Assembly: GCA_017405445.1 (NCBI GenBank)
Contig: JAFRAK010000028.1
Coordinates: 6,034-70,033 of the forward strand
From: Bacilli bacterium
Lineage (GTDB): Bacteria > Bacillota_I > Bacilli_A > RF39 > UBA660
Length of the DNA stretch: 64,000 nt
Direction of reading: 5' to 3'
A program made the translations under genes and the position numbers. This document shows, piece by piece, positions 14,251 to 61,983 of the stretch (the first letter of the stretch is position 1; each line of letters begins with the position of its first letter). The notes below the pieces were generated by a model. That model searched no databases. It was not told where the DNA came from and worked only from the letters and a program-made list of their open reading frames with translations.

Positions 14251-14304
14251 AGGAGCAATTAAAAGAAATCTAAAAGACATAGCAGTTTCTTGGTCACTGC
14301 AATT

Positions 14305-14345: not shown

Positions 14346-14385
14346 TATTTTTGATAATATGTAAATATAGTAGGAAGGTGTCGAA

Positions 14386-16309: not shown

Positions 16310-16310
16310 T

Positions 16311-18100: not shown

Positions 18101-18109
18101 TGTCAAGCG

Positions 18110-18137
18110 ATTGTTTTTAGATTGTATTAAAAACAAT
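18110..18137 (+). promoter_or_regulatory. 10-bp perfect inverted repeat between potD and ptcA (candidate operator or weak terminator)
   Basis: ATTGTTTTTA (18110-18119) / 8-nt loop / TAAAAACAAT (18128-18137). No T-run follows, so it is not a canonical terminator. Confidence 0.3.
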
Positions 18138-18180
18138 TGTGTGATATATTTATTTTAAGATAGGAGGAATAAGAAAGGAA

Positions 18181-19167: not shown

Positions 19168-19178
19168 GGTGAAAGAAT

Positions 19179-20621: not shown

Positions 20622-20625
20622 GAGT

Positions 20626-20648
20626 AAGAGGTTAAATAACCTCTTTTC
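20626..20648 (+). terminator. Hairpin after aguD (weak terminator or attenuator)
   Basis: AAGAGGTT (20626-20633) / AAAT / AACCTCTT (20638-20645), then TTCT. The T-run is short. Confidence 0.4.
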
Positions 20649-20675
20649 TAACATAAAAAAGAAAGAAGGAATAAA

Positions 20676-27977: not shown

Positions 27978-27991
27978 TAGGAGGAATAAAT

Positions 27992-34235: not shown

Positions 34236-34272
34236 AACTTATACTTTAATAGATAAAAACAATAAAATAATA

Positions 34273-34315
34273 AAGAATTGACTTAGAACAATTTCTAAAT
34301 TCAATTCTTTTTTTG
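34273..34315 (+). terminator. Probable terminator after mraY (long-loop hairpin)
   Basis: AAGAATTGA (34273-34281) pairs with TCAATTCTT (34301-34309) across a 19-nt loop, then T7. Confidence 0.5.
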
Positions 34316-34401
34316 ATGGAAAATAATAATTTCCTTCTTTTACAAAGAAAAAACAATTTGTTATAACATTAGTACTTTTTTGTTTGAAAGGGAGGAATTA
34401 A

Positions 34402-35271: not shown

Positions 35272-35292
35272 AGTCAATTATGACTTTTTTTT
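35271..35292 (+). terminator. Rho-independent terminator after the Rpn-like gene
   Basis: AAGTCA (35271-35276) / ATTA / TGACTT (35281-35286), then T8. Confidence 0.6.
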
Positions 35293-35333
35293 CTTTGTAA
35301 ATTATACTATACTTATACTAGGAGAATATAGAT

Positions 35334-37070: not shown

Positions 37071-37120
37071 TTTTGGATAATATTATAAAAATATGTTAAA
37101 ATAAGTATAGGAGGATATTT

Positions 37121-38497: not shown

Positions 38498-38521
38498 AAA
38501 AGAACAATGTTCTTTTTTTTT
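38498..38521 (+). terminator. Rho-independent terminator after the aminopeptidase gene
   Basis: AAAAGAAC (38498-38505) / AAT / GTTCTTTT (38509-38516), extended T-run. Confidence 0.6.
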
Positions 38522-38552
38522 GACTTATTAATAAGATTTAATAGGTGATGAT

Positions 38553-39635
38553 ATGAAGTTTGATAGAATATTATTTATCTCCACTATACTGATTTCTTTA
38601 TTTGGTATTTTAATGATTTACTCATCTTCTAGTATTTGGGCAGAATATAAGTTTAATGATTCTTATCATTTTATAAAATATCAATCATTTTTCTTATTAA
38701 TGGGTATAATCTTAATGATTATGACTTCTAGAATTGATTATCATATTTACTATAAGTATTCAAATCTTCTATTAATTGGATCTATTATTCTTTTAATACT
38801 TGTATTAATTCCTGGAATAGGAAGCATTAGAAATGGAAGTAGAAGTTGGTTTGGAATTGGATCATTTGGAATTCAACCAAGTGAAGCAGCAAAAATATCT
38901 TTAATTATTTTTACGAGTAAATATTTATCTCGTAGTGACAATCAAATAAAATCTTTCTGGACTGGATTATGTCCTATTTTATTAATTTCTTTTTTTATCT
39001 TTGGATTAATTATGCTTCAACCAGATTTAGGAACAGGTTTTATTATTCTAATGAGTATTTTTTCAATACTTTTTATTTCTGGTGCTTCTATGAGATTTTT
39101 TAAAATAGGTGGGATATTTGGAATTGTAGGAATTATCTGTTTAATAATAATAGCTCCATATCGAATGGACAGAATTACATCATTTATTAATCCATGGAAA
39201 GATCCATTAGGTACAGGATTTCAAATGATACAAAGTTTGTATGCTATAGGTCCAGGAGGATTATTAGGACTAGGATATGGTAATTCTATTCAAAAACATT
39301 TTTATTTACCAGAACCTCAAACAGATTTTATATTTTCTATTATTTCAGAAGAATTTGGAGTAATGGGATCAATACTTGTAGTTAGTTTATTCTGTATTAT
39401 TTTTTATCGAGGAATAAAAATTAGTTTAAATACAAATGAATCCTTCTCAAAATATTTATCTTTTGGAATGACTTTTCAAATTATTTTCCAAGCACTACTA
39501 AATCTTATGGTAGTAGTAGGATTAATTCCTGTAACGGGTGTAACCTTACCATTTTTATCATATGGTGGTTCAAGTCTATTAGTTTCTATGACTAGTATCG
39601 GAATAATTTTAAATATTTCAAGAAATAATAGTTGA
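38553..39635 (+). CDS. ftsW: SEDS-family peptidoglycan polymerase (FtsW/RodA/SpoVE)
   Basis: 360 aa, about 10 TM helices. Motifs: GSRSWFGIGSFGIQPSEAAKI, LQPDLGT, PEPQTDFIFSII, TLPFLSYGGSS. The FtsW versus RodA choice is only contextual. Confidence 0.8.
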   Translation: MKFDRILFISTILISLFGILMIYSSSSIWAEYKFNDSYHFIKYQSFFLLMGIILMIMTSRIDYHIYYKYSNLLLIGSIILLILVLIPGIGSIRNGSRSWFGIGSFGIQPSEAAKISLIIFTSKYLSRSDNQIKSFWTGLCPILLISFFIFGLIMLQPDLGTGFIILMSIFSILFISGASMRFFKIGGIFGIVGIICLIIIAPYRMDRITSFINPWKDPLGTGFQMIQSLYAIGPGGLLGLGYGNSIQKHFYLPEPQTDFIFSIISEEFGVMGSILVVSLFCIIFYRGIKISLNTNESFSKYLSFGMTFQIIFQALLNLMVVVGLIPVTGVTLPFLSYGGSSLLVSMTSIGIILNISRNNS

Positions 39636-39651
39636 TACACGAATATATGTT

Positions 39652-39660
39652 TGATATAAT
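39652..39660 (+). promoter_or_regulatory. Putative extended -10 box TGaTATAAT upstream of the ORF6N gene
   Basis: Exact TG-n-TATAAT, 24 nt before ATG 39685, with AGGAGG in between. Confidence 0.35.
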
Positions 39661-39684
39661 ATTGTTAACAAATCAGGAGGTTAT

Positions 39685-40548
39685 ATGAACAATATTATAT
39701 TGACTGAAAAAGTAAGGATAGAAGATATGATTTATGAAGTTCGTGGAGTTCAGGTAATGCTAGATTCTGATATAGCTAAGTTATATCAAGTAGAAACTAA
39801 AAGAATTAATGAAGCAGTAAAAAATAATTTGGAAAAATTTCCAGAGAGATTCAGTTGGATTTTAACAGAAAACGAATGGATTTTTCTAAGGCCGAAAATT
39901 TCGACCTTAGAAAATAATCTGCCAGGTAAAGGACACCATAGGAAGTATTTACCAAGAGTTTTTACAGAACAAGGTGTTGCTATGCTAGCTACTATTTTAA
40001 AATCAAAAGTAGCTACTAAGGTTAGTATTAATATAATGGATGCATTTGTATTAATGAGAAAATATATTTCTTCTAGCTTGATAGAGCAAAAATATATAAA
40101 TAATTTAGTATTAGAACATGAAGAAAGATTAAAAATAGTAGAAAATACGTTTTCTAATTTTAAAGAAAAAAACAATCATTTATTTTTTAAGGGCCAAATA
40201 TATGATGCCTATTCACTATTACTTGATATATTTGAGAAGTCTAAAAATGATATAATAATCATTGATAATTATATTGATAGAAACATATTAGATATGCTTT
40301 CTAAAACTAAAAAGGAAGTAAAAATAGTAACTAATAAATATAATAATCAGGATTATGAAAAATATAAAATGCAATATAAAAATGTAGAATTAATAATTAA
40401 TAATAAATTTCATGATCGTTTTATAATTATTGATAAAAAAATATTATATCATTGTGGTGCTAGTTTTAAAGATTTAGGTAAACAGTGTTTTGAAATTTCT
40501 AAAATTGAAGATAATGATATTTTAGATAAATTATTAAAAAAGTTATAA
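39685..40548 (+). CDS. ORF6N (KilA-N-related) DNA-binding domain protein with a C-terminal degenerate HKD/PLD-like motif
   Basis: 287 aa. The N-terminus IYEVRGVQVMLDSDIAKLYQVETKRINEAVKNNLEKFPERF is the ORF6N signature. The C-terminus has FHDRFIIIDKKILYHCGASFKDLG (H-x-R-x4-D-x7-G-x-S). Confidence 0.7.
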   Translation: MNNIILTEKVRIEDMIYEVRGVQVMLDSDIAKLYQVETKRINEAVKNNLEKFPERFSWILTENEWIFLRPKISTLENNLPGKGHHRKYLPRVFTEQGVAMLATILKSKVATKVSINIMDAFVLMRKYISSSLIEQKYINNLVLEHEERLKIVENTFSNFKEKNNHLFFKGQIYDAYSLLLDIFEKSKNDIIIIDNYIDRNILDMLSKTKKEVKIVTNKYNNQDYEKYKMQYKNVELIINNKFHDRFIIIDKKILYHCGASFKDLGKQCFEISKIEDNDILDKLLKKL

Positions 40549-42512: not shown

Positions 42513-45500
42513 ATGAAGAAAATAAGAATCTTTATAATTACTTTTATTGTCTTTATATGTTCTATCTCTTTTTTTGCGTATCAAAAAACAAGACCAGTTG
42601 AAATTAGTAAAGTTTTAGAAAAAAAAGCATATTCTTATTTACCAAAAAGTGCAAAAGATTACATAGAAAAAATATATGAAGAAACAGGAGAAGTTGTATT
42701 AACAGAAAAAAATAAAAAGAAAAATACTCCATACTTAAATCCTGAATATATTAAATACTTAGATATGTCTAAAGAAGAACAAAAAGAGGTGGAAGAATTA
42801 CCTATTCCATATGTTTTTGATGCTGTTGTTTTACCTGAAGATAATGCAACAGAGCCTGGTTCTTCTTATGATTTAAGAAGCGTTGGTTCAACAGGTAACA
42901 AGAAAAACTTTTTAACCCCAATTAAAGATCAGGATACTTTGGATTTATGTTGGGCCTATACAACAACAGAACAAGCTGAAAGCTATTTGATGCTAAAAGA
43001 AAATTCATCTTACAATGCTAATACATCAAAAGTATTCTCACCTAGACAACTTGATTATGGAACTAGTACTAACGGAATTAGAGAATATAGTGGTATTACA
43101 GAATCATCATCTGAACCAAGAGAACCAATGGCAATTAGATCCCTAACAACAGGAGGAAACTTTATTACATCTTCAACAATTTTGGCTCGTGGACTAGGAT
43201 TGGTAAGTGAAAACACATTCCCATCAGATTATAATACTGATGAAAAAGAACTTCATGAGGTATTAAATTTTGAGAATTCTTTATATGAATTAAATTCATC
43301 AGAAGTTTATCTAAATAATAATTATACAGTGGGAACTACAGAATATAATAATTTTCTAAAGAAAATCAAAACAAAAGTGATGGAAAATGGAGGAGCTTAT
43401 GTAAGTACTCAAGCTCCAAATTATACCTGTTCATCTACAAATCATGATGGAAAACAAATCATAAAAGTAGATTCAAATTGTTCCCAAGATGCATCTCATG
43501 CTATGCAAATTATTGGATGGGATGATTCTTATACATACTCTTATTGTAAAGCTACTTGTAGAGTTAAAAATCAACAGACAGGTGAGACAACAGATGTAAC
43601 TTGTCATGGAAATAACGTATCTAATTGTAGTTCATCTAATCTAGTTACTGGTACAGGAGCATGGATTTTAAGAAATTCTTGGGGGAATACAGAACCATAT
43701 GTATATTTATCATATGACTCTCCAACGGCAGCTATATATTTATCAACAGATCTTACTCCAATGTCTAATCGTACTTGGGATAATAGCTATTATAAAAAAT
43801 TTGAATTATCTTTTATGGCTGGACCACAAATTAGACAAGATTTTGAAAAACCAATTGATACAATAGAAAAACTAGAAAAAGTAAAATTCCATACCTATGG
43901 ACAAAATGGAACATATACATTACATGTTCTTGATGGAGATAAAAAAACATATTCTCAAGTAAAAACTATTTCAGTAAGTGAAATGGGTTATGCAACATTT
44001 GATGTTTCTAATTTAAATATTTATCTTACAGACTCTAATTTTGCAATTTATATTGCAAGTCAAAATAATGTCTCTATGATAAATGAATCAATTGTTGCAT
44101 TAACTTCAAATTATGATTCAATTCCGAGTGTAGATACACAACATTATTATAGTGATTATTCTAGTAGTGGTTATGAAATTGATGCTTACTCATATACAAA
44201 GAATATTCCATCTAATACAGTAATTCCTTTTGAATTATATGATGATAAAGGAAATGATGTAAGTAATTATTTAGTTGATGTTAATGAAAATATTGTTGCA
44301 AAAAATAATATGAACTCCATAATACTAATATCTGGATCAATTCCAAGAGGAATTTATACATTAAAAGGATATTATGGTACTTATGAGTATGTATCGAAAA
44401 TAATTATTGATTCAACATATCGATTAGATGGAGATGGAACTCAAGATTCTCCATTCTTGATTCAAACAGAATCTGATTTACGAAAAATGTCTGTTTATAT
44501 GGATGGTCACTATAAATTAATGAATGATATTACTATGACAGATAATTGGGTACCAGTTGGTACAGAAACCAGTCCTTTTATAGGATCTTTTGATGGAAAT
44601 GGACATACAATTATGAATCTTTCTGTAAGAGATGCTAAATATGGTGGCTTATTTGGATATATTAAATCTCAAGTATCAAGTTCTAATCCTGTTACTACAG
44701 TAAAGAATTTAACGATTAAAAATGCTAATATATCTGGTTCTGATGCTGCTGGTGCAGTAGCAGGATTTGTTACAGGTGAAATGGGAATAGGAACGAGTTG
44801 GAATAATCCAACTTCACAATTTGAAATTTCTGATGTAAGTGTAATAAATGGTAATATCTATTCAGATTATGGTCCATCAGGAAGTGCAATTGGAACGATT
44901 CGTCCATTTGAAAATGTATATACAGGAAAAAGAAATGTAACATTAAGTAAATTCTTTACATCCGCAACTGTAGGTGGATCTACTGCTTCAGGTGGATTTG
45001 TCGGAGAAACAGCAGGTGGAAAAGATACTAGTCATAGTTCTGTAATTAAACTAGAAAATGTAGAAAATCTAGGTATTGTTGATTTAAATCCAATTAAGAA
45101 TAAAAGTATTCTTCCTGCACTAAATACACATGCTGCAGCAATTGGAAAAATGAGTAATTATAATACCTTTAATTTTAACTATTATATTATTTCCCCATTA
45201 TTTAGAGGATTTAGTTATTCTGGAGATGGATTAGTTGGAATACTTGGATCTAATACAACAAAGAACTCATCTTATGGATACAATACTCTAGATTCAGGAA
45301 CTTCTATTCTAGATTTAAAAACTTTATCTAAATATGGTAGTTGGAGTAATTTTAATAATAATTGGAAAATGGAAACAATTGATAATATTCCAAGAATTCC
45401 AATACTAAAAAATGTTGCTATGGAGTATACTTCTATTCCTATGTTAGAGATAAGCCCTGGAGAAGAAAACACACTTCTAACTATATTATCTTCTCCAAAT

Positions 45501-46400
45501 TTTGCAAGAGCATATTCAACATCTGTTCTAAATTCTAACATTGCAACAGCAACATCCCTAACAGATGCTGATAGTGGACAAGTATATGATATGAAAATAT
45601 CAGCTCATAAAGCAGGGGAGACTATGATTCATATTATCAGTAATTATGATGGATATGAAAATGATGTATTAATTAAAACTGGAGTTGCAATTGAAGAATT
45701 TACGATTCCAGAAGATACCATTTATATGTATGTTGACGATACATACCAAATTAATCCAACTATTAATCCACCAAATGCAACAGAAAGCAAAATAATTGAT
45801 TGGCAAGTAGCAGATAATAGTATTGTTACATTAGATAGTGATGGAATAGTAACAGCAATAAGTTTAGGAACTACAACCATTACAGGAACTCTTCCAAATT
45901 CAATGAGTGTTACTTTAAATGTTATTGTAAGAGAATTTGTTGGAATTACTAGTTTCTCTGTAAGTAATAATAATATCCCATTAAGCCCAGGTAATGACTG
46001 GACCCTTGCTACAATAATTACTCCATTAAATGCCACAGAGTCAAAAGAAATAACATGGACATCAACTGATTCTAGTATCGCAACAGTTAACTCAGATGGT
46101 AAAATAACTGGAGTAAGTGCAGGAACTGCAACCATTACAGGAACATTATCAAATAATATGAGTGTCTCTATTAATGTAACTGTTACAAATGATACCTTTG
46201 ATTACAAAAAAGGAGACTGTAATTATGATGGTTCAATTAGTATGAATGATGCTATGGTTGCTTTAAGAAAAATGTTTGGCTATTCTCCAATCGATGAAAA
46301 AGATTTGGCTGTAGGAGATTTGGACGGTAATTCTCTCATTAATATCAGTGATGTTATTAGATTATTAAGATATATATTTGGTTATTTATCTGATTTATAA
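42513..46400 (+). CDS. Secreted multidomain papain-like (C1) cysteine peptidase with GLUG-like repeats, two Big_2 domains and a C-terminal dockerin
   Basis: 1295 aa with a signal peptide. Catalytic motifs: QDTLDLCWAYT (Gln/Cys), SHAMQIIGWDD (His), WILRNSWG (Asn). GLUG-like GGLFGYI, AGAVAGFV and SGGFVGE. Two Big_2-like domains (..TTITGTL.., ..ATITGTL..). Dockerin duplicates GDCNYDGSISMNDAMVALRKMFG and GDLDGNSLINISDVIRLLRYIFG. Confidence 0.8.
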   Translation: MKKIRIFIITFIVFICSISFFAYQKTRPVEISKVLEKKAYSYLPKSAKDYIEKIYEETGEVVLTEKNKKKNTPYLNPEYIKYLDMSKEEQKEVEELPIPYVFDAVVLPEDNATEPGSSYDLRSVGSTGNKKNFLTPIKDQDTLDLCWAYTTTEQAESYLMLKENSSYNANTSKVFSPRQLDYGTSTNGIREYSGITESSSEPREPMAIRSLTTGGNFITSSTILARGLGLVSENTFPSDYNTDEKELHEVLNFENSLYELNSSEVYLNNNYTVGTTEYNNFLKKIKTKVMENGGAYVSTQAPNYTCSSTNHDGKQIIKVDSNCSQDASHAMQIIGWDDSYTYSYCKATCRVKNQQTGETTDVTCHGNNVSNCSSSNLVTGTGAWILRNSWGNTEPYVYLSYDSPTAAIYLSTDLTPMSNRTWDNSYYKKFELSFMAGPQIRQDFEKPIDTIEKLEKVKFHTYGQNGTYTLHVLDGDKKTYSQVKTISVSEMGYATFDVSNLNIYLTDSNFAIYIASQNNVSMINESIVALTSNYDSIPSVDTQHYYSDYSSSGYEIDAYSYTKNIPSNTVIPFELYDDKGNDVSNYLVDVNENIVAKNNMNSIILISGSIPRGIYTLKGYYGTYEYVSKIIIDSTYRLDGDGTQDSPFLIQTESDLRKMSVYMDGHYKLMNDITMTDNWVPVGTETSPFIGSFDGNGHTIMNLSVRDAKYGGLFGYIKSQVSSSNPVTTVKNLTIKNANISGSDAAGAVAGFVTGEMGIGTSWNNPTSQFEISDVSVINGNIYSDYGPSGSAIGTIRPFENVYTGKRNVTLSKFFTSATVGGSTASGGFVGETAGGKDTSHSSVIKLENVENLGIVDLNPIKNKSILPALNTHAAAIGKMSNYNTFNFNYYIISPLFRGFSYSGDGLVGILGSNTTKNSSYGYNTLDSGTSILDLKTLSKYGSWSNFNNNWKMETIDNIPRIPILKNVAMEYTSIPMLEISPGEENTLLTILSSPNFARAYSTSVLNSNIATATSLTDADSGQVYDMKISAHKAGETMIHIISNYDGYENDVLIKTGVAIEEFTIPEDTIYMYVDDTYQINPTINPPNATESKIIDWQVADNSIVTLDSDGIVTAISLGTTTITGTLPNSMSVTLNVIVREFVGITSFSVSNNNIPLSPGNDWTLATIITPLNATESKEITWTSTDSSIATVNSDGKITGVSAGTATITGTLSNNMSVSINVTVTNDTFDYKKGDCNYDGSISMNDAMVALRKMFGYSPIDEKDLAVGDLDGNSLINISDVIRLLRYIFGYLSDL

Positions 46401-51965: not shown

Positions 51966-52178
51966 ATGATGAAATTAAATATTCAATTATTTGCTGTTCC
52001 TTTCCGTAAGGTATCAAAGACTAGAAAAAGATTAAGAAGAAGTCATAATGCAATGGAAGTTCCTGGAATGACAAAATGCCCTAGTTGTGGGGAAATGATT
52101 AAACCACATAGAGTATGTCCTAAATGTGGAACTTATAAAGGAAAAGTTGAAGTTAATACAAATAAAGAAGTAGAATAA
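51966..52178 (+). CDS. rpmF: 50S ribosomal protein L32 with a 9-residue N-terminal extension
   Basis: [27 protein letters not shown]...[22 protein letters not shown]. The body is canonical zinc-ribbon L32. SD AAGGAG at 51951-51956 sits 9 nt before ATG 51966. The codon before GCT (Ala) is TTT, not ATG. Confidence 0.92.
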
Positions 52179-52193
52179 TTTCTACTTTTTTTA
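52168..52193 (+). terminator. Rho-independent terminator after rpmF
   Basis: AAGTAGAA (52168-52175) / TAAT / TTCTACTT (52180-52187), then a T-run. Confidence 0.7.
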
Positions 52194-52335
52194 TTTTCTT
52201 TTTTTGAATTATCTTATATAATGTTATTTGGTAGGGTATGTGAATTAGAAAAATTGAAAAATAGATTTTTATATATTTTCTTTTTTCTAAGAATCATATA
52301 TAATAGTATATAGTAGAGTATAGGGAGTGTGTAAG

Positions 52336-55300
52336 ATGATGTCAAAGAAGAAAAAATTATCAACAAAAGGTTTTTCTTTAATTGAATTATTAGGCGTTAT
52401 GGTTATATTAAGTATATTAGCTGTTATTTCTATTTCAGCAGTTACTAGATATATTGACCAAAGTAGAAAACAAAAAGTTGTTCAAAATAAGAAAAATGTG
52501 GCAATTGCGGCTGAATTGTATTTACAAGCCAATCGTGATTTAATGCCAAAAATGATCGGAGAAGTTGTTTATGTTCCTTTATCTGATTTAAGAAATACAA
52601 ACTATATTAAAGAGGATGTAACAAATGAAAAAGGGGAAGACTGTATGAGAGAATCCTTCGTACGTGTCTTTAAGTTGGGTGAAGGAGACTATAATTACAC
52701 TACTTACCTATTTTGTGGTGGAGAAAAAGCACCAGAAAATGTTGAACCAGCAAAACCATATCTTGAAGATTTAAAAGATGAAAATGAAAATAAATTTGTA
52801 AAAGTCTTATTCTCAACAAAAGATGATGTTAAAAAAGCTAATTTCTCATTTAAATTAAAAGGTGGTAAAAATACTCAAACTCAAGAGAATATTGGATTAT
52901 ATAGTTATAGTTACTCTATTTTAGTTAAAGTAAGTCCAAATCAAGTTCTATATGATAAAGATGGTAATTTAATCACACAACAAGAAGGATTTACAGAAAT
53001 ATATAACTCAGGAACTATCGCAGCAAATAGAAATCCAGCAATTGAATTTAAATCTAGACCAATATCATCATATGTAGATTTACCAGGAGTTACAGCTGTA
53101 CAAGTTAAAGTAACTGCATTGAATGAAGAAGGAGGATTCCTATCATATGTAACAGAAGGAATCGGTAATGCTGGAGGAGAAACAGAATATGACGATAATG
53201 TTAAACCAATTTGTCCAGCACTTGATGATTTTGCAGGCCGTATTGGAGAACCTAGAAGTTTAAATGATTGGATTGGAAAAGACAAAATTGGAACTAACGA
53301 ATATCCAAGAGTTATTACTCTAAAATGTGAAGATGGAGATGGATCTGGTTGTAAGAGAGATACCTTTACAGAATCATGGCCAAATGAAGAAAGAGATCCA
53401 TTTGGAATAATGTTTGGAGAAATAGTATTAGAAGATAACTCAGTAGTAGATGCTAATGGTAATATTAAAGAACCAAATAAAGAAATATGTCCAATTAACG
53501 TATTCGTAGATTTACAATCACCATCTGTAGAAATTACTCCTGTTAATCCAAGTCCTAAAGATGGACATGCTATGAACGTAGGAAAAGATATGGAGTATCG
53601 TGGTAGAAAATGGCAAAACTCTGTCAGAGTACATGATTCTGAAGAACCAGAAGATAGAGTCCCTAAAAAGGATAATTTAGATGAAATAACCATGACAATT
53701 ACAGATCTTAACTATTTAGATGTATATAACGAGTATGATAAAGATGAAGGATGGTTAAATGATGAGTTCTTCCCTGAAGGAATTGAATATGATATCGTAC
53801 TAAAAGATAATATTTACTTATATTCTTATACTTGGGAAGTTAATGAACCATATCTAAATACTAGTGCACCATACTTAAAAGAAGTATCAATGAATAATCC
53901 AGAAAGTGTTGCTTGGTACAGAGTAGATGATCCAGAAATGGCAATTAATGAAGATGAATTACTACAAAATAGACAATCATTAACTCCTGAAGAAAATGAA
54001 TTACATATAACAATTAGCTTTAAAGAAGAAGGTGCCAGATACGGAATCTTAACAGTATATGATAGAGCTGGTAATTCGACTACAATTTATATTTATGCAA
54101 ACCTAGATAGAACTTACCCTCCAATTGAAGAACATGATTATGGAATTCAAGATTTCGAAATAAATGAAAATGATATTCGTTGGGTAGAAATTGAGTATCC
54201 ACCAGAAACAGATCTTGAAGATACCTTATCTGCTGAAGAAGGAGAAGCAATTGGAATGGATATCAATGATGATATGTTCCAAGGATATGATGTATGTGAT
54301 GATGAAGCTTATTTAGGAAAAGATGATGGACCTTTACAAATAAATATTAATGGAAAAGAAAGTGGTACACAAGGAAATGTAGTTGATTGTATCCAAGGTA
54401 AAACGAAATATAATAAGCCTGGTGAAATACCAAAAGCATGTGTTGTATTAAATCATGATGTCTATGGTACTTACTATGGTTCCGATGAACAAATTGTTGA
54501 AAGAGAAGTAACAGGATGTTATAAAATTGGTACCGTAAAAGGAGACAATGGAATAGAACAAAAAGATTATAAAGATGATTCTGTATTTGAAACACTAGAA
54601 CAATATAAATCTGGGACATGGTCTAACGAGGAAATGGTATGTGGGCCAAGTACAGAAATGACTTTAGATAATTATTATACAAGAATAACAGAAGAAGGAA
54701 ATAAAGAAAGAGTAGAAATACCTGATGAAATATCAGGTTGGGTAGGAGTTCATATTCTTTATTTCCGTCAAAAAGGGATTAAGAAAGTTTATGATAAAGA
54801 AGAGGCTCCTCAGTGGAAATATACATATGATAAAAAAGATAATATAGGAAAAGAAACTGAAGAAGAAGAGGAACCAGAAACATCACCATATAATAGACCT
54901 TCAATATACGAAATAGTATATGGAGATAGTGAAGAATCTGATCCTGAGTATGTTAAGCATTATTCAATTACTAGTTTAGATAGAGAATCATGGCCAATCT
55001 TTGATGACCAAGGAACTCACCAATTACAATGGAAAAACTGTGATAAAGCAGGAAATTGTTCAGAATATGAATTAAAAGAAAATATAAAAATTGATACAAT
55101 AAAACCAAAATGCTACAATTCACTTGTATATAATGATGAATTAAATAGTGATAGTAAAACTGGACCAAACCACAACGGATGGTTATATGATAAACAAGCA
55201 GCAACAGTTTATCATGGCTGTGCAGATACTTCTCACTATGATGTAAAAAGTTATTTCGAAGCAATGTCAAGTATTAAGAATAGTATTCTTGGATTACAAA

Positions 55301-58300
55301 ATACACAATATTATCAAGTCAATGATTTTGTATATGATGAATTTGGAAGTGGATGTGCTAAATCAGAAGATCGTACCGATAAAACAATGAAATATGATAA
55401 AGATGTTTATACTTGCGAAGCAGGAACGGATGGAGTACAAAAATATGGAACTGTAGTAGATGTTGCAGGAAATATTGGAGAATGTAGTAATGGTGTGTCA
55501 ATATGGAAAGATACTGCTCCACCATTATGTGGTACAAGTATTTACTACGAAGGAACAAATAGTGAAGAAGAGGAAGATCATAAATACAACGTTCCAAATC
55601 GATATGGATGGGCGAATGATGGAATGACTGCTAAAATCATGAAAACATGTAATGATAGTACTGATGCAAAAGTAAGTGCATATCCAGCAACAGATCCACC
55701 TTCTCGTTATGATGAAAACGGTGACATTTTATCAGCTGAAGAATATGAAAAAAAATATGATGCATGGGCTGAAACTGAAAAAGTATATAGTGGATGTAGA
55801 AGAAGTGATAGTGTCAATAAAGATGATTACTATAATTCACTTAATAGATCTAGAATACCAAGTACTTACAGAGTTACAGAAGAAATGCTAGGATATAATG
55901 GATTTGCCTATAAACCTCCAAAAGATGAAAATGGTGAAAGACAAGGATTAGTACAAGTAGATAAAAATACATATTATTACCAACATTTTTATTCAACAGA
56001 GTCGAAACAATTCTTTTATGAAGATACCTATAATGGTGGTTATTACTTTATCCCAAGAAATAATGCAAGTTATATAATAGAAACTACAGATGACGTTAAA
56101 GGTAAAGTAGGAGCTGAAGGAGCAAAACCAACATATCATGAAGCTGGTACAGTTTATATTGATAAAGATGAGAAAAAACCATTATTAGATGAATATGGAA
56201 ATGAAGTAATAAGTGAGTATTCATATGCTATCCTAGAACAACAAGGTGGATATATCATGGATCAGGCAGGAAATATTAGTGAAAGGCCATGTAAATTAGC
56301 AACAGCTGCTAAAGACTCTAAAGCACCTGAATGTAAAAACAGAGTTACAGCAATGAATACAGTAAAAACGACAAAAGATAGTGCCGGAGTAGTGCGTGGA
56401 GTATTCCACCTAGGTGATTACAACGAAGAAATAAAAGATTATGATAAATGGGTTGGTACAGTTGGAAAAAATGGACACGAAGAATATATAAAAGTATATA
56501 AAGGATGTAATGATGTCCCAGTACCAAATTATCCAGGAGTAGCTGGAGTAGCAATGAGCTTGTGTGACCAACAATTCTTAGGAGAAAATATTCCAGGAAA
56601 TTATTGGTTATATGGAAATGTATATGAATTTATAGATGAAATTGATAGACAAAGAAATACACCTGGATCAAGAAAAGGTAGTGCGGGAGTTACCTTTGAA
56701 GGACCGGATGCAAACCCTACAGGTGAAAAAGTTAGAGACTATGCTGGAAACCCTGGTACAGGTCTTTGTACACCGGTAGATGCCAATATTGATTATTACT
56801 TACCTAAGTGTCAAGTTGTACTTGCAGAAGGTGGTTCTGGTGTGATAGGATTTCAATATCCAGATTATGATCCTAATACTTTACACCCCGTAATAGGTAG
56901 AGCATCAATTATGTATAAGAATTGGGATACAAGAGAAGGTATAGTGGCTTATGCTAGATGCATCACAGACTATGATGAAGTTGTACAAGAAGATATAGCA
57001 AGTGGTTGTGATGATATTGGACAATGGGGTGATAAAGTACTTATCACAAAACAAGATGAGTTTACAGGTGAGTGGAAAACTGAACCGACTGGTGTACGTC
57101 AAACGGGATTTACTTATTTGGGTGCAAATCATGATGAAACAGTTGAATTATATACAACTGATTTAGCGGGTAATGCTAAATTATGTACTGTCGAAGAAGG
57201 AAGTACATTCCGTATAAAGCAAGATATGAAAGCACCAGAAGTAACTTGTAGCTTCTGGGGTGGATATGTAAAAGATTATCAAGTCTATCCATCCGTACAT
57301 CATCCTCAGTCATACATGCATATTCATATAGATTCTATCGAAGATGTTGGAGCAGAACCTGATAATTATGCTGTTGGCATATATTATGCAGGAGAAAATG
57401 ATCCAGAACTTGATAGATCAAGAAAAGATAGTTGGATATATCAAGGTAAACCATTATCTAACAATCTTTATTTCGATAATTCAGTGCGAAGAGGATCAAT
57501 GGCAGAATTAACAAATTTTGTTGAATACAATGGAGATAAAGTACCACTAAGACCAGGAGTTTATGATTATGATATACCATTATCTTGTGGCCCTTATGGT
57601 GGAGGTACTGCAAAAATCAGGGGAGTAATATCAGTTGTTGATAAAAATGGTAACATTAATAGAGTTGAGTGTGATGCAGATAGATCAAAACCAGGTATGC
57701 AAAATAAAGACTGGGTTGATGTACCATATTGTTGTGATAGAACAGATGAAAATTGGGTATATAAAGAACCTGTATGGACTGATTGTCGTGTGTGTGGAGA
57801 AGCACAAATACACTATAAGGTACAAGATAAGGTAGCACATTCAATTTATAATGAAGGAGTCGAGTGTTCTATGACTGATGTTCTTGAAGAGAGAGCATGT
57901 GATAACTTACCAACTGATTGCTGCAGATGGGATATGCAAGTACATTACAACACATGTAGTGCTGAAGGATCAAGTAATCCTTGCTCATTTGGAGTAAGAA
58001 GTCAGTATTCAGTTTCTGGATTTCCGGGAATGGGAGGACTATACTGTTCTGAAGAAGGAGTAAATTATTCCTTGTGTCAAGCTGATGAAAATGAGTGTAG
58101 ACGTTTGGGTCAGAGTAGTTATTCTTCTACTCCAACATCAAAAAGTTGTCAATTAAGAATTGTGCAAAACGTAAAACCTGACCAAGACATTATAGTATTA
58201 AAGCCAAGTACACAATCGAATAATAATTGTAGAATAGCTGGAGCAACTAGTCAATGTACATATTCAATTAATAGAGACAATAATACACTAAGATTTAGTG

Positions 58301-58704
58301 CAAATAAGATAGGCTCTAATCAGAAAGAGTCAAGTTATAAAACAGGATGTTCCTTATCTATTACTTGGTCAAGTAAGAATACATCATCACTCGATTTTAA
58401 TGGTTCCCAATTTAAATCTCAAAATGTGTATATTGCAAAATGTGATAATAAACAAAATAAATTTTTAAGAGATGGAAATGGAAATATACCAGATTATATC
58501 TATTGTATTTCTCATGGTGTTTCCGATGACCCAACAAACCGTTTAGGAGAACACGTATGCGCAACTTCTGAGTCAGAAGCCACATCATATTGTAAAGCAC
58601 AAGTAAAAGTAGCACCTAGTACTCCAGATACGCCAGATGATCCACCTCCAGCAGTAGTTACACCTAAGCCAAGTGTTGACCCTTATGATGATGAAAGGGA
58701 TTAG
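52336..58704 (+). CDS. Giant (~2,122 aa) modular protein with a type IV prepilin-type N-terminal cleavage/methylation signal
   Basis: GGGAG lies 8 nt before ATG 52336. MMSKKKKLSTKG|FSLIELLGVMVILSILAVISISAV fits the prepilin consensus (G-1, F+1, E+5). A small pilin-like head carries two Cys (...GEDCMRES...YLFCGG). About 2,000 aa follow, with recurrent D-x-AGN...D-x-x-x-P-x-C module junctions, a Cys-rich C-terminal third and a Pro/Asp-rich tail. Confidence 0.85.
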   Translation: MMSKKKKLSTKGFSLIELLGVMVILSILAVISISAVTRYIDQSRKQKVVQNKKNVAIAAELYLQANRDLMPKMIGEVVYVPLSDLRNTNYIKEDVTNEKGEDCMRESFVRVFKLGEGDYNYTTYLFCGGEKAPENVEPAKPYLEDLKDENENKFVKVLFSTKDDVKKANFSFKLKGGKNTQTQENIGLYSYSYSILVKVSPNQVLYDKDGNLITQQEGFTEIYNSGTIAANRNPAIEFKSRPISSYVDLPGVTAVQVKVTALNEEGGFLSYVTEGIGNAGGETEYDDNVKPICPALDDFAGRIGEPRSLNDWIGKDKIGTNEYPRVITLKCEDGDGSGCKRDTFTESWPNEERDPFGIMFGEIVLEDNSVVDANGNIKEPNKEICPINVFVDLQSPSVEITPVNPSPKDGHAMNVGKDMEYRGRKWQNSVRVHDSEEPEDRVPKKDNLDEITMTITDLNYLDVYNEYDKDEGWLNDEFFPEGIEYDIVLKDNIYLYSYTWEVNEPYLNTSAPYLKEVSMNNPESVAWYRVDDPEMAINEDELLQNRQSLTPEENELHITISFKEEGARYGILTVYDRAGNSTTIYIYANLDRTYPPIEEHDYGIQDFEINENDIRWVEIEYPPETDLEDTLSAEEGEAIGMDINDDMFQGYDVCDDEAYLGKDDGPLQININGKESGTQGNVVDCIQGKTKYNKPGEIPKACVVLNHDVYGTYYGSDEQIVEREVTGCYKIGTVKGDNGIEQKDYKDDSVFETLEQYKSGTWSNEEMVCGPSTEMTLDNYYTRITEEGNKERVEIPDEISGWVGVHILYFRQKGIKKVYDKEEAPQWKYTYDKKDNIGKETEEEEEPETSPYNRPSIYEIVYGDSEESDPEYVKHYSITSLDRESWPIFDDQGTHQLQWKNCDKAGNCSEYELKENIKIDTIKPKCYNSLVYNDELNSDSKTGPNHNGWLYDKQAATVYHGCADTSHYDVKSYFEAMSSIKNSILGLQNTQYYQVNDFVYDEFGSGCAKSEDRTDKTMKYDKDVYTCEAGTDGVQKYGTVVDVAGNIGECSNGVSIWKDTAPPLCGTSIYYEGTNSEEEEDHKYNVPNRYGWANDGMTAKIMKTCNDSTDAKVSAYPATDPPSRYDENGDILSAEEYEKKYDAWAETEKVYSGCRRSDSVNKDDYYNSLNRSRIPSTYRVTEEMLGYNGFAYKPPKDENGERQGLVQVDKNTYYYQHFYSTESKQFFYEDTYNGGYYFIPRNNASYIIETTDDVKGKVGAEGAKPTYHEAGTVYIDKDEKKPLLDEYGNEVISEYSYAILEQQGGYIMDQAGNISERPCKLATAAKDSKAPECKNRVTAMNTVKTTKDSAGVVRGVFHLGDYNEEIKDYDKWVGTVGKNGHEEYIKVYKGCNDVPVPNYPGVAGVAMSLCDQQFLGENIPGNYWLYGNVYEFIDEIDRQRNTPGSRKGSAGVTFEGPDANPTGEKVRDYAGNPGTGLCTPVDANIDYYLPKCQVVLAEGGSGVIGFQYPDYDPNTLHPVIGRASIMYKNWDTREGIVAYARCITDYDEVVQEDIASGCDDIGQWGDKVLITKQDEFTGEWKTEPTGVRQTGFTYLGANHDETVELYTTDLAGNAKLCTVEEGSTFRIKQDMKAPEVTCSFWGGYVKDYQVYPSVHHPQSYMHIHIDSIEDVGAEPDNYAVGIYYAGENDPELDRSRKDSWIYQGKPLSNNLYFDNSVRRGSMAELTNFVEYNGDKVPLRPGVYDYDIPLSCGPYGGGTAKIRGVISVVDKNGNINRVECDADRSKPGMQNKDWVDVPYCCDRTDENWVYKEPVWTDCRVCGEAQIHYKVQDKVAHSIYNEGVECSMTDVLEERACDNLPTDCCRWDMQVHYNTCSAEGSSNPCSFGVRSQYSVSGFPGMGGLYCSEEGVNYSLCQADENECRRLGQSSYSSTPTSKSCQLRIVQNVKPDQDIIVLKPSTQSNNNCRIAGATSQCTYSINRDNNTLRFSANKIGSNQKESSYKTGCSLSITWSSKNTSSLDFNGSQFKSQNVYIAKCDNKQNKFLRDGNGNIPDYIYCISHGVSDDPTNRLGEHVCATSESEATSYCKAQVKVAPSTPDTPDDPPPAVVTPKPSVDPYDDERD

Positions 58705-58721: not shown

Positions 58722-59639
58722 ATGAATAAAAAGAATATGAATAACAAATTACGCAAGTCTCTAATCCTTCTCGTTGTTTTAGCTTTAATTGCAACAGTTG
58801 TAATAATTCTAATGAAACTATTCTGGGATACAACTGGTTACAAGATTTATCAAACACCATATACCGCAAGATCATGGGAACAGTATGAGTGTTTAAAAGC
58901 CGGAAATGTTTGTACTCGCGAAGATATTTTAAAAGCAATTAAAGTAAAATTACCAGTTAATGAAAAAGAAATTTATAATTTTTATTTAATTGATAATGAT
59001 GAGAAAACAGCAACATTACTGATGGATCGAAATTTAGTTGGAGTAATGGACTGGTCATTGGTAGATAGTAATTTAAGAGGTCCTACAAGTGCTTTAATTG
59101 AAGTCCTTGAAAGAACAAAAAATTGGTCATTTATTCCACTAATTGAATCCTATGAGTATGTAGATTTTGGAAAAAAATATTTTGAAGATATTTGTAAAGA
59201 AGAAAAAAAATCTTTAAGAGACGCTTCTTATGACTGTTCAGAAGATGTTTTAAGAGGTTATAATGGTATTAAAATAACAAATGGAGTAACTGTTCTTCGA
59301 TTTAATGATGAAGATTACACAGGAGAAGAAGATGATTCATTTAATGCTACTCAATTAACTAAGAAAGCAAGAGTAAGATTAATTACTTTTGAAGAAATCG
59401 AAAATTTACGAGAAATAAATAATTATCCAGATTGGTTAATTGATAATACAATGGAAAATGAAGGTTATTGGACTTTATCTTCATCACCATTTGAATCAAC
59501 TCTTTATTCAACATCTGCTATGGCAATGACCAATTATTTGAATAAACCATTTGTAAGAGAATTATATCCAGTAAACCAACATAATGAACTAAATAAGAGA
59601 AATGGATTAAGACCAGTAATTACAATTGAAAAATATTAA
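58722..59639 (+). CDS. Signal-anchored protein with a DUF6273-like C-terminal domain, co-transcribed with the giant pilin-like gene
   Basis: 305 aa. AAAGGAG SD, 17-nt gap from the giant gene, TM helix LILLVVLALIATVVIILM. The C-terminus RLITFEEIENL...EGYWTLSSSP...NGLRPVITIEKY parallels the 35334 protein ending. Confidence 0.75.
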   Translation: MNKKNMNNKLRKSLILLVVLALIATVVIILMKLFWDTTGYKIYQTPYTARSWEQYECLKAGNVCTREDILKAIKVKLPVNEKEIYNFYLIDNDEKTATLLMDRNLVGVMDWSLVDSNLRGPTSALIEVLERTKNWSFIPLIESYEYVDFGKKYFEDICKEEKKSLRDASYDCSEDVLRGYNGIKITNGVTVLRFNDEDYTGEEDDSFNATQLTKKARVRLITFEEIENLREINNYPDWLIDNTMENEGYWTLSSSPFESTLYSTSAMAMTNYLNKPFVRELYPVNQHNELNKRNGLRPVITIEKY

Positions 59640-59641
59640 AG

Positions 59642-59668
59642 ACTTATAACTTTGTTATAAGTTTTTTA
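59642..59668 (+). terminator. Rho-independent terminator closing the giant-gene operon
   Basis: ACTTATAAC (59642-59650) / TTT / GTTATAAGT (59654-59662), then T6. Confidence 0.75.
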
Positions 59669-59694
59669 TTTGATATAATAAATATGGTGGTAAT

Positions 59695-61983
59695 ATGAAA
59701 ACAAAATTAATAATATGTCCTAATGAATATAAAAATGAAATATTATTACAAACGAAAAGTATATGTAATCAAAAATTTATGACTTTAAATGATTTTATAA
59801 AGCATTATTATTTTGAATATCATGCAAAAGCAATTTATTATTTAATGAATAAGTATCATTTTCATATTGATACTTGTAAAGTTTATTTAGATAGTATGAT
59901 ATATATTGAAGATAAACAATATAAAAGTAATAAATTAAATTATTTAAAAGAATTAAGAGAAGAATGTATAAATAATCATTTATTAGAGTTTCATCCATTA
60001 TTTAAAGAATCTTTAAAGAATTATGATATTGAAGTAAAAAATTACTATCACATTGAAAATCAAATAAAAAGTATACTAAATTATCATGATGAAATACATT
60101 CATTTACTTTTTCTAAGAAAGTATATGAATTTAATAGTATGGAAAAAGAAATCCATTTTGTATGTCAAGAAATAAGAAAATTATTAGATAATAATGTTTC
60201 TTTAAATAAAATATTTTTAGTAAATGTAGGAGAAGAATACTATTATCTATTATCAAAATTATTCTCATACTATAATATTCCAATAGAAATACCTTTTCAA
60301 AATCCCATCTATGCTACTAAGACAATTCAAGGATTATTAAATTCAAAAACTCCTCTTTTAGAAATAACAAATAAAGTAGAAAAACAATATAGTGAAATAT
60401 TAAAACAATTATCTGATTTAGAAAAAGATGAGATATATGAAACAATATTAAAAGAAGAGTTAAAACATACTTATCTTTCAAATCCAAAATATGAAGAATC
60501 AATTAAAATATTAGATTTAACATCTAAACCTTTTCAAGAAGATGAGTATGTATTTGTACTAGGTTTCAATCAAGATTCTCTTCCAAAGACAAAAAAGGAT
60601 GTAGATTATCTTTCAGACAAAGATAAAAAAGAACTTGGAATAGAAACAACTATGGAATGGAATAAAAGAGAAAGAGAAATTATTCCTTATCTTTTAAGTA
60701 AAATAAAAAATTGTACAATAACTTATAAATGTACTTCGCCTTTTGAAAAATATTATCCATCAAGTTTAATTAAAGATTATCAATTAGAAGTAATAAAAGA
60801 GCCTTCTCTATCAAATCATTATTCCCATTTGGTAAATAAATTAAAACTTGCGGATTTACTAGATAATTTCTATTTATATGGTGAAAAAAATGAGAAATTA
60901 CTGGAATTAAATTCAAATTATGAAATTGGATATCACAGCTACGAGAATCAGTATAATGGAATTAATAAAGATACTTATTTAGAAAATTTAAATGTTCCAT
61001 TAAGAGTATCTTATTCTAGTCTCAACCAATATGCAGAATGCAAGTTTAAGTATTATATTAATTATGTATTAAAACTAAATCAGTATGAAGATACTTTTCC
61101 AGGATTTATTGGGTCATTATATCATAAGATATTATCATTGAGAAAAAGAGGTGGATTTGACTTAGAAAAGGAATGGAATAATTATTTAGAAAAAAGGGAT
61201 TTAACACTTAAAGAAAAAACATTATTAGTAAGAATACGAAAAGATTTAGAAGATATTATTGAAGTATTAAAGAAACAGGATCTTTTAACAGATTATCAAG
61301 AAGAGTTGTGTGAACAGTCAATTGTAATTCCCCTTCGTACGGATATTTCTACAGAATTTATTGGATATATCGACAAAATTATGTTTTTGAAGCAAATGAA
61401 TGATACTTACTTTTCTATTGTAGATTATAAAAGTGGGGAAATAGATACAAAAATAGAAGCAATGAAATATGGTTTACATATGCAGTTACCAATCTATTTA
61501 TATTTAATTCATTATGGCAAGCTGTTTGAAAATCCAATCTTTACTGGAATCTATTATCAAAACATCTTATTTTCTTATCCAATGTGGAATAAAAAACTTG
61601 CAGAACAAGAAGAAAAGAAATACTATCTTCAAGGTTATAGTACAGATAAAATAGAAATATTAGAAAAATTTGATAAAACATATCAAAATAGTGAATTAAT
61701 TAAAAGTATGAAGTATCAAGAAGATAAAGGTTTTGGAACTTATACAAAACTAATGAATGATGATACGCTATTAGAGTTAATAAAATATACGAAAAACATA
61801 GTGGAAAAAGAAACAGATGATATTTTAAATGCAGATTTTAAAATCAATCCAAAAATATATGGAAAAGATAATATCTCTTGTGAACTATGTAAATTCCAAG
61901 ATTTATGTTTCCATAAAAATGAAGATATTGTCCGCTTACCTAAAGTAGATGATTTATCTTTTTTAGGAGGTGATATCAAATGA
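59695..61983 (+). CDS. addB: AddB/RexB-type helicase-nuclease subunit, short form (762 aa) with a C-terminal PD-(D/E)XK nuclease and 4-Cys cluster
   Basis: C-terminal third: SSLNQYAECKFKYY (Cys 1), IVDYKSG (nuclease D-x-K) and ISCELCKFQDLC (Cys 2-4) give the AddB iron-sulfur staple pattern. No Walker A is visible at the N-terminus. ATGA-type overlap with addA. Confidence 0.75.
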   Translation: MKTKLIICPNEYKNEILLQTKSICNQKFMTLNDFIKHYYFEYHAKAIYYLMNKYHFHIDTCKVYLDSMIYIEDKQYKSNKLNYLKELREECINNHLLEFHPLFKESLKNYDIEVKNYYHIENQIKSILNYHDEIHSFTFSKKVYEFNSMEKEIHFVCQEIRKLLDNNVSLNKIFLVNVGEEYYYLLSKLFSYYNIPIEIPFQNPIYATKTIQGLLNSKTPLLEITNKVEKQYSEILKQLSDLEKDEIYETILKEELKHTYLSNPKYEESIKILDLTSKPFQEDEYVFVLGFNQDSLPKTKKDVDYLSDKDKKELGIETTMEWNKREREIIPYLLSKIKNCTITYKCTSPFEKYYPSSLIKDYQLEVIKEPSLSNHYSHLVNKLKLADLLDNFYLYGEKNEKLLELNSNYEIGYHSYENQYNGINKDTYLENLNVPLRVSYSSLNQYAECKFKYYINYVLKLNQYEDTFPGFIGSLYHKILSLRKRGGFDLEKEWNNYLEKRDLTLKEKTLLVRIRKDLEDIIEVLKKQDLLTDYQEELCEQSIVIPLRTDISTEFIGYIDKIMFLKQMNDTYFSIVDYKSGEIDTKIEAMKYGLHMQLPIYLYLIHYGKLFENPIFTGIYYQNILFSYPMWNKKLAEQEEKKYYLQGYSTDKIEILEKFDKTYQNSELIKSMKYQEDKGFGTYTKLMNDDTLLELIKYTKNIVEKETDDILNADFKINPKIYGKDNISCELCKFQDLCFHKNEDIVRLPKVDDLSFLGGDIK

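Follow-up and report, generated by a model that had tools for sequence, protein, structure and literature searches.

We analysed a 64-kb stretch of DNA from an uncultured Bacilli bacterium (contig JAFRAK010000028.1, positions 6,034 to 70,033 of the forward strand; hereafter the window) in which one open reading frame (ORF), at 52336-58704, encodes a protein of 2,122 amino acids (aa) and 54 cysteines that begins like a type IV prepilin and continues into a long chain of modules. This giant gene and the gene for a small membrane-anchored partner form a cassette between two probable terminators. The features of the cassette, with the evidence for each in brackets, are the following.

52164-52191, + strand: AT-rich hairpin and U-run 3' of rpmF, probable intrinsic terminator (-11.2 kcal/mol, z -3.57, 0 of 200 shuffles as stable)
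52323-52327, + strand: ribosome-binding site (RBS) GGGAG, 8 nt 5' of the ATG at 52336 (direct sequence reading)
52336-58704, + strand: gene for the giant prepilin-type modular protein (ORF read, identical product on 7 contigs, family homologues)
52336-52371, + strand: basic leader, aa 1-12 (MMSKKKKLSTKG), ending at Gly-1, with the predicted prepilin peptidase site after G12 (sequence, homologue comparison)
52372-52530, + strand: pilin alpha-1 helix, aa 13-65, with F1, E5, a hydrophobic alpha-1N and an amphipathic alpha-1C (N_methyl, TIGR02532, AlphaFold2, family profile)
52531-52725, + strand: small globular pilin head, aa 66-130, with invariant C103 and C127 (alignment, AlphaFold2)
52726-54135, + strand: family-defining stalk base, aa 131-600, several beta-sandwich, immunoglobulin (Ig)-like domains (BLAST coverage of all homologues, invariant columns, AlphaFold2, Foldseek)
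54136-55005, + strand: acidic variable insert, aa 601-890 (aligned only in the homologues of ~1,900-2,160 aa, P0001-P0009)
55006-57255, + strand: five divergent Cys-bridged Ig-like modules, aa 891-1640 (motifs, alignment, weak domain matches, AlphaFold2)
57256-57720, + strand: further beta-rich region, aa 1641-1795, with a DKNGN...C junction (sequence, low-confidence model)
57721-57930, + strand: Cys-rich unit resembling a thrombospondin repeat (TSR), aa 1796-1865, a degenerate copy (9-sequence family profile, Pfam TSP_1 in relatives)
57931-58605, + strand: C-terminal Cys-rich beta region, aa 1866-2090, with conserved Cys columns, the presumed distal end (alignment; low-confidence model, with a predicted local distance difference test score, pLDDT, of about 50-75)
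58606-58701, + strand: Pro-rich acidic tail, aa 2091-2122 (direct sequence reading)
58722-59639, + strand: partner gene, encoding a 305-aa bitopic protein (conserved 3' of the giant gene in the related loci L001, L002 and L007)
59638-59666, + strand: AT-rich hairpin and U-run after the partner gene, probable terminator (-10.3 kcal/mol, z -4.39)

The giant gene and its prepilin signal

The N-terminus of the giant protein reads MMSKKKKLSTKG|FSLIELLGVMVILSILAVISISAV, with a mature side that begins FSLIELL and a signal core of K-G|F-S-L-I-E-L. It shows the marks of a class III signal, namely a basic leader running to Gly-1, F+1, E+5, a hydrophobic stretch and the N_methyl signature, and it scores above the cut-offs of both Pfam N_methyl (PF07963; 21.9 bits, cut-off 21.2) and TIGR02532 (20.3 bits, cut-off 16.3). 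All 29 homologues found in a first pass carry a basic leader ending in K/R/N-G that is followed by F-[ST]-[LM]-[IV]-E-L. In an alignment of 30 sequences, which spans family members down to 30% identity, E17 and L18 never vary, while at least 90% of the sequences retain G12 and F13, the sole exception being a miscalled start; N_methyl matches 29 of these 30 sequences (best E 2.1e-7). A buried Glu inside a membrane helix is not retained unless it is functional, so the invariance of E17 across such deep divergence argues that the prepilin signal is genuine. No other prepilin motif occurs in the 64-kb window.

The helix and head behind the signal are likewise pilin-like. AlphaFold2 (AF2; 30 sequences, mean pLDDT 78) predicts a 51-residue helix at residues 15-65 and then a small beta head, whose short strands at 77-124 reach a pLDDT of 75-85 and whose C103 and C127 are invariant in the family. 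When a family profile of aa 5-67 was compared with the PDB it retrieved polymerising type IV pilins at E-values of 2e-9 to 1e-3, including Geobacter PilA-N (9egp, 2e-9) and Streptococcus sanguinis PilE1 (8pfb, 4e-7), with further matches to PilA, MshA, PpdD and GspG (entries including 9laa, 8tj2, 3sok, 6gv9 and 5wda). A preliminary description of this DNA had recognised a class III signal on a pilin-like helix and a head with two Cys, and on all of these counts it was right. It had added that the helix would be just a signal anchor if homologues lacked the G|F...E5 motif, which all 29 retain. As judged from sequence, the N-terminus is a genuine, family-conserved class III signal.

The gene itself is intact. 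The ORF can be read from GTG 52327 or ATG 52336, ends at 58704 and has no internal stop. Its integrity had earlier been left for long reads to confirm, and the doubt was answered without them by the identical 2,122-aa protein on seven independent contigs from different samples (ENA and two Logan runs), which excludes an assembly artefact. The chance that we are dealing with a pseudogene, an assembly chimera or a fortuitous frame is negligible: we found no point in support of it, and it is ruled out by the seven contigs together with full-length homologues at 33-94% identity and Cys and motif columns that are kept along the entire length.

The description of the pair as a two-gene operon bracketed by terminators was also borne out, in that both hairpins are stable and carry U-runs and the partner gene starts 17 nt past the giant stop codon, with its own RBS. 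The upstream hairpin probably insulates the cassette from upstream transcription. Both hairpins have AT-rich stems and for that reason escaped a GC-dependent consensus terminator scan. At 59652-59679 lies a promoter-like site for addB with a TG-extended -10.

The extension and the partner protein

The stalk base is all-beta in its AF2 model (pLDDT 78). Its invariant positions include C293, C331, a GSGC339KRD motif and C385, and it terminates in DRAGN576...D591xxxP595 (DRAGN...DRTYPP). Foldseek, which the preliminary description had proposed to run on AlphaFold models, matched the base to extender regions of MpIBP and RTX adhesins and to MG domains of alpha-2-macroglobulin at E-values of 2e-6 to 1e-4, with the low TM-scores that are expected of flexible multi-domain chains. 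The base thus resembles the tandem Ig-like regions of adhesins.

Beyond the acidic insert, the five modules of aa 891-1640 follow the consensus W..CxD..SGC...DxAGNxxxC...DxxxPxC, and the four conserved Cys of each module suggest two disulfides per module. Eight junctions had previously been said to share a D-x-AGN motif followed by D-x-x-x-P-x-C. After conversion of their coordinates to protein positions, D-x-x-x-P is indeed present at all eight (aa 287, 392, 591, 920, 1059, 1327, 1486 and 1630), but P-x-C is found at only five, the Cys being offset or absent at aa 392, 591 and 1630, and strict D-x-AGN precedes the junctions in only six copies (aa 576, 903, 1042, 1309, 1468 and 1609), with DANGN and DKNGN variants at two other junctions. 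These motifs are not due to chance because they fall in conserved columns of the family alignment. The modules have diverged too far for self-BLAST of the giant protein to return internal repeats at E<1; they are visible in the family alignment instead.

The modules had also been likened to HYR or Ig-type adhesin domains. The Ig-like part of this proposal stands, on the evidence of Foldseek, AF2 and weak matches to Big_3_2 and OmpL47-type Ig-like families, but the HYR part does not. The giant protein has no match to HYR (PF02494) at E<=0.01 and only one of the 30 family members reaches E 0.05, so we rejected HYR in favour of the better though weak Ig-like matches. Big_3_2 matches 4 of the 30 members (best 8.6e-5) and Big_13 and Big_3_3 match a few. 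The OmpL47-type model (NF047446) aligns weakly with aa 889-910 of the giant protein (19.4 bits, cut-off 40) and reaches 52.4 bits on a related 871-aa pilin from the locus L023.

Toward the C-terminus the chain becomes rich in Cys, with 22 of them within aa 1751-2086, and it closes with a PSTPDTPDDPPPAVVTPKPSVDP tail whose last residues are ...PKPSVDPYDDERD; both the Cys-rich region and the tail had been noted before. The TSR-like unit occurs in the window protein and in homologues P0003-P0009. A profile built from nine sequences of it retrieved only TSR proteins from the PDB, led by TSP-1 (3r6b, 1.7e-6; 1lsl, 4e-6) and followed by ADAMTS-5, UNC5 and C6. Pfam TSP_1 (PF00090) matches four of the nine (best 4.2e-5), and the copy in the window is not among them. 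The window copy lacks one Cys pair and the first Trp, and its two closest relatives likewise lack two Cys; that two Cys were lost together in this clade suggests that they pair with each other.

Sequence reading found no LPXTG, C-terminal hydrophobic segment or other known anchor at the C-terminus, and membership in the sortase-anchored (LPXTG) adhesins was rejected because neither the motif nor the hydrophobic segment is there. An AF2 model of aa 1301-2122 is beta-rich at a pLDDT of 58, it gives no assignable fold for the Cys-rich end beyond the TSR-like unit, and its Foldseek match to the tandem Ig repeats of the RTX adhesin 6xi1 carries little weight. In three homologues the N-terminal 620 aa are 99%, 86% and 72% identical to the giant protein, as compared with 88%, 66% and 38% for the distal part. 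Exposed binding ends typically evolve faster, and the distal divergence would fit such an end. Sequence and models together support an extension that is a chain of Ig-like modules closing in a Cys-rich region.

The giant gene is always trailed by a gene for a small N-terminally membrane-anchored protein, of which two sequence types exist. The type in the window (~300 aa, 17 close homologues) has an N-terminal signal anchor without the G|F..E motif, a CxKxxxxC motif and a C-terminal W-T-L-S-S...G-L-R-P-V-I-T-I domain. Nine distant homologues (P0172-P0183, 325-423 aa) carry a true prepilin N-terminus and a pilin head before the same module, with which the partner ectodomain is collinear. The cassette is thus linked to pilin biology through both of its genes, since the partner ectodomain is homologous to modules of true prepilins. 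Some relatives among P0172-P0183 give borderline matches to DUF6273/Lcl_C (C-type lectin-like), and DUF6273-like domains have been described as C-type lectin-like in a phage study (PMC10743442). Searches with the partner itself gave nothing in the PDB at E<=10 and nothing meaningful in Pfam, so that the link runs through the distant homologues only. From these similarities, the partner is probably a membrane-anchored, lectin-like protein.

Family, pilus machinery and the rest of the window

A word-indexed search gave the 29 homologues of the giant protein, of which nine have the full ~1,900-2,160-aa architecture (33-94% identity), while in the other 20, of 1,186-1,844 aa, similarity is largely limited to the first ~600 aa. 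When the N-terminal 620 aa were used in an exhaustive search, the number of representative clusters was 135 at E<=1e-30 and 513 at E<=1e-10. The family, defined by a conserved 600-aa N-region made up of the pilin helix, the Cys-pair head and Ig-like domains, thus comprises at least 135 clusters with lengths of 900-2,450 aa, most of them 900-1,300 aa. Its members come from metagenome-assembled genomes (MAGs) of uncultured 'Bacilli bacterium' (sheep rumen and ileum, human gut) and from cattle-rumen metagenome contigs. None of them has a protein name in NCBI or other sources, and our literature search found nothing relevant that joins a prepilin with thrombospondin, or RF39 with type IV pili. The window, with ~28% GC, encodes penicillin-binding proteins, FtsW, MraY, a PARCEL-repeat lipoprotein and arginine and agmatine deiminase pathways, a gene content that fits a low-GC monoderm.

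Across these genomes the giant gene occupies two fixed chromosomal positions among housekeeping genes. The order yceD-rpmF-giant-partner-addB-addA is found in the window, L001, L002, L009 and L090, and L007 shares giant-partner-addB. At the other position the order is rmuC-trpS-rhomboid-x-giant-partner, then LysM ... htpG (L004 and L091), and L006 shares the upstream part. The cassette of giant and partner genes is duplicated in tandem in L006 (9983-16625), L007 (~5900-14158) and L090 (6025-14502). AddB next to it in the window (59695-61983, + strand) has only 762 aa and matches just the C-terminal part of the AddB model; this short form is kept beside the cassette in relatives.

A wider MAG group of uncultured Bacilli/'Tenericutes' shares the pilin-head type of the giant protein, and in it we counted 5,330 PilC homologues at E<=1e-20. 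Loci with pilC-pilD pairs in related gut MAGs of this kind are:

L023 4655-6889: pilC-pilD, dnaG-rpoD-trmK context
L089 10001-12228: pilC-pilD, dnaG-rpoD-trmK context
L113 1111-3524: pilC-pilD

The pairs are isolated, and in the first two loci the pair follows dnaG-rpoD-trmK (Pfam T2SSF, A24_N_bact and Peptidase_A24). The 871-aa modular pilin mentioned above lies 2.5 kb from pilC-pilD in L023 and carries DxAGN...DTEAPS repeats, and the giant head is 34% identical to it over aa 4-128 (E 6e-14), both Cys included. The platform protein of the lineage scores higher as PilC/GspF than as ComGB. The preliminary description had stressed that the giant gene lies far from any pilus machinery. Such remoteness is no evidence of independence, because pilC-pilD and the pilin genes of the wider group are themselves scattered among housekeeping genes.

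Several members of this group also hold tandem arrays of 4-6 paralogous small prepilins of about 150-215 aa (L052 4656-7501; L054 9372-11922; L062; L064). N-termini are near-identical within the L052 array, and no machinery gene or ATPase lies near the arrays. A pilC contig and the giant-gene contig of P0023, both of 10,707 bp, were shown to be different contigs.

Other genes of the window are described here in their own right. A 1,295-aa signal-anchored surface protein (42513-46400, +) combines a papain-like 'CWAY' N-terminal region with two Big_2 domains and ends in a duplicated Ca-loop that is dockerin-like by eye (DCNYDGSISMNDAMVAL...GDLDGNSLINISDVIRLL), where Pfam called Big_2 only. Two adjacent energy-yielding deiminase pathways occupy 7388-21791: arcA-argF-arcC, and an agmatine deiminase cluster with putrescine carbamoyltransferase, an antiporter and aguA; they flank an amino-acid ABC transport system and potABCD. 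Within this region a single 811-aa ORF (9615-12050, +) is an apparent fusion of carbamate kinase (aa 1-315) and a YfcC-type putative basic amino acid antiporter (aa 392-809). The PARCEL-repeat surface lipoprotein (5252-7243, +; Listeria-named 'Liste_lipo_26') matches the Mycoplasma bovis model Mbov_0838, a hint of the organism's affinities. The division and wall cluster at 33255-40548 is interrupted, with a PDDEXK_2 transposase-like gene, a 578-aa ORF and an M18 aminopeptidase in the mraY-ftsW gap and an ORF6N-domain gene 3' of ftsW. A Glu/Lys-rich protein of 1,074 aa (22188-25412, +), probably coiled-coil, contains an internal repeat of ~100 aa three times and has no signal peptide and no family match. 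Finally, a HerA_C (DUF853-type) ATPase gene follows a 491-aa ORF with weak zinc-ribbon matches (26502-29545, +), and the two are possibly a two-gene system.

Interpretation and comparison with known systems

We lean towards reading the giant protein as a type IV pilin of modular build, probably a minor one, with the function of a long-reach adhesin, and we think this somewhat likelier to be right than wrong. By analogy with other pilins, the N-terminal hydrophobic helix would insert the protein in the membrane. A PilD-type peptidase encoded elsewhere would then cut after Gly12 and methylate Phe13, as the invariant K-G|F-[ST]-x-[IV]-E-L suggests; such an enzyme is present in the wider MAG group sharing the head type, in L023 and L089. 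The helix and the disulfide-bonded head could next dock in a type IV filament made by PilC-type machinery that is also encoded elsewhere, presumably at the tip or as a rare subunit because the ~2,000-aa extension is bulky. Structure prediction and motif conservation suggest that the extension would be a rod built from at least a dozen Ig-like domains stapled by disulfides, and this rod would carry the fast-evolving Cys-rich end, including the TSR-like unit, tens of nanometres off the cell, where it would bind host, feed-particle or other microbial surfaces. In what is the weakest step, the co-transcribed membrane-anchored partner would probably contribute to the same surface process, either as a co-adhesin or in assembly. 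PilD processing, incorporation in a filament, the tip location, the adhesive function and the role of the partner are what we infer here.

Several observations weigh against this reading. No ORF of at least 100 aa in the window matches a pilus-machinery family, relaxed thresholds included, and prepilin peptidase, assembly ATPase and platform genes are absent from its 64 kb, just as the preliminary description had stated; ten related loci likewise lack all three within 10 kb of the giant gene. No PilB-type ATPase turned up within 6-10 kb of pilC or by the pilin arrays in a search for Walker A patterns. For no family member did we find the giant gene and pilus machinery in one genome: none of the 120 best among the 5,330 PilC homologues lies on a contig that matches in length one carrying a giant gene, none of the 47 loci from a metagenome scan with a PilC profile is on the 695-kb contig bearing P0019, and no pilC has the family motif within 6 kb of it. 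Pfam TSP_1 does not recognise the degenerate TSR-like unit of the window protein, the C-terminal model has low confidence, and a fixed, vertically inherited housekeeping position is less typical of accessory adhesins. We know of no experiment showing that type IV machinery handles a 230-kDa subunit, and the largest modular pilin in the literature cited below has 860 aa (PMC8179133).

In the main alternative, the protein would be processed by PilD without being polymerised in a long pilus, its helix serving as a membrane anchor or as part of a short pseudopilus-like stub, while the Ig-like rod alone would cross the wall and project the adhesive end, with the partner alongside. The cassette always lies apart from pilus genes at fixed housekeeping positions, ~2,000 aa of beta-sandwich domains may well be long enough to make a filament unnecessary, and with no LPXTG or wall anchor the N-terminal helix is the sole visible attachment. 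The plain signal anchor of the partner would also fit a membrane function, although the same domain is fused to pilins elsewhere. However, conservation of the helix and head, E5 and the head disulfide included, is like that of polymerising pilins and exceeds the constraint that a mere anchor would need, and the wider MAG group with this head type maintains pilC, pilD and many small pilins; we regard this alternative as unlikely overall, if one to be taken seriously. A bolder form of the idea is that in reduced-genome gut and rumen Bacilli the pilin head serves as the base of a 230-kDa disulfide-stapled fibril and not as one of thousands of subunits, that this fibril carries an animal-type adhesion repeat (TSR) and is paired with a membrane-anchored lectin-like partner, and that the whole is a conserved organelle, encoded at a fixed chromosomal position, for attachment to host epithelium or partner microbes, needing only a prepilin peptidase or a minimal pseudopilus stub. 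Taken as a whole, this proposal is speculative and in our judgement rather improbable.

Doubt could also fall on the signal itself, which might be only a Sec signal anchor resembling a prepilin signal, on a bitopic protein that stays unprocessed or is freed by another protease. The N_methyl score is barely over its cut-off and no peptidase gene is in view in the window, but G-1, F+1 and E+5 are retained in all homologues across deep divergence, the match to real pilins reaches residue 67 and N_methyl recognises nearly every family member, which leaves little room for a plain anchor. Equally hard to sustain, and in our view very improbable, is a part in a Com or type II secretion (T2SS)-like pseudopilus, for instance as a minor pseudopilin with a DNA- or substrate-binding extension. 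Com pili are common among monoderm Bacilli relatives, to which this organism belongs, and the models of GspG and ComGC do match weakly at the N-terminus. Their scores of 21.4 bits (equivalog cut-off 88.85) and 19.7 bits (cut-off 75) come from the N-terminal helix only and are far under the cut-offs, so membership in either family was rejected; the platform protein of the lineage resembles PilC/GspF more than ComGB, and an Ig-like rod with a Cys-rich head looks like an adhesin, not a DNA receptor.

If the members of the family are true pilus subunits, they extend the size range known for type IV pilins about 2.5-fold, and a mechanical question arises as to how a 230-kDa subunit passes the assembly machinery and the Gram-positive wall. 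With its 135 or more clusters, the family would be a candidate attachment factor of poorly known uncultured bacteria from the rumen, the ileum and the gut of rabbits and humans. For an exported protein of an anaerobic low-GC bacterium, TSR-like repeats and dozens of conserved Cys are unusual.

Modular pilins are defined by an N-terminal pilin module and one or more modules not specific to pilus biology, and Raynaud et al. (2021) catalogued more than 1,200 of them, with 264 architectures in all and an 860-aa protein with 12 repeats as the most extreme case (PMC8179133). The giant protein fits this definition, with a pilin head at aa 1-130 and then Ig-like and TSR-like modules. The earlier statement that described modular pilins add a single module was therefore wrong, and rather than an undescribed adhesion or display system we see an extreme form of a concept already described. 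Because current domain signatures do not see its modules, the giant family is missed by censuses of modular pilins.

Among known systems, PilB and PilC of S. sanguinis are about 400-500 aa long. Like the giant protein, PilB (with a vWA module) and PilC (with a lectin module) occur in a monoderm host, have a class III signal with E5 and join a small pilin module to non-pilin adhesive matter, and tip display has been proposed for both as it is here for the giant (PMC8179133; PMC9934059). They differ in having one module and lying inside the pil locus, whereas the giant protein has 2,122 aa, at least 12 Ig-like domains and a Cys-rich end, is encoded in its own two-gene cassette far from pilus genes and is known from genes alone. 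The 860-aa pilin of Candidatus Falkowbacteria also has a prepilin N-terminus followed by many repeated domains (PMC8179133). The giant protein is 2.5 times longer, and its modules are unrecognised by current domain signatures. CofB of enterotoxigenic Escherichia coli and TcpB of Vibrio cholerae, type IVb minor pilins of about 500 aa, place beta-repeat or beta-sandwich domains after the pilin module, initiate or tip the pilus and mediate binding. Unlike the giant protein, they belong to diderm hosts and are encoded in the pilus operon, and we detected no sequence similarity to them.

The top structural matches of the rod were the tandem Ig rods of Marinomonas MpIBP and an Aeromonas RTX adhesin (4p99, 5irb, 6xi1 and 6xi3), which hold ligand-binding domains far off the cell. 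Those proteins rely on type I secretion, outer-membrane retention and stiffening by calcium, whereas the giant protein has a pilin head and is apparently stapled by Cys pairs. With TSR adhesins (thrombospondin-1, ADAMTS, UNC5 and the apicomplexan TRAP type) the distal unit shares the Cys framework and a W..C..C.G.Q.R.C core in register, although the giant protein is bacterial and its copy in the window degenerate. The modular pilins P0172-P0183 bear on the second gene of the cassette: the ectodomain of the window partner is a homologue of the module at their C-terminus, but in the window this module sits on a separate protein with an ordinary signal anchor beside the giant pilin gene. The grafting of adhesive modules on pilins is thus known already, and what is new here is the size, the Cys-stapled modules, the TSR-like unit, the dedicated partner and the remote location.

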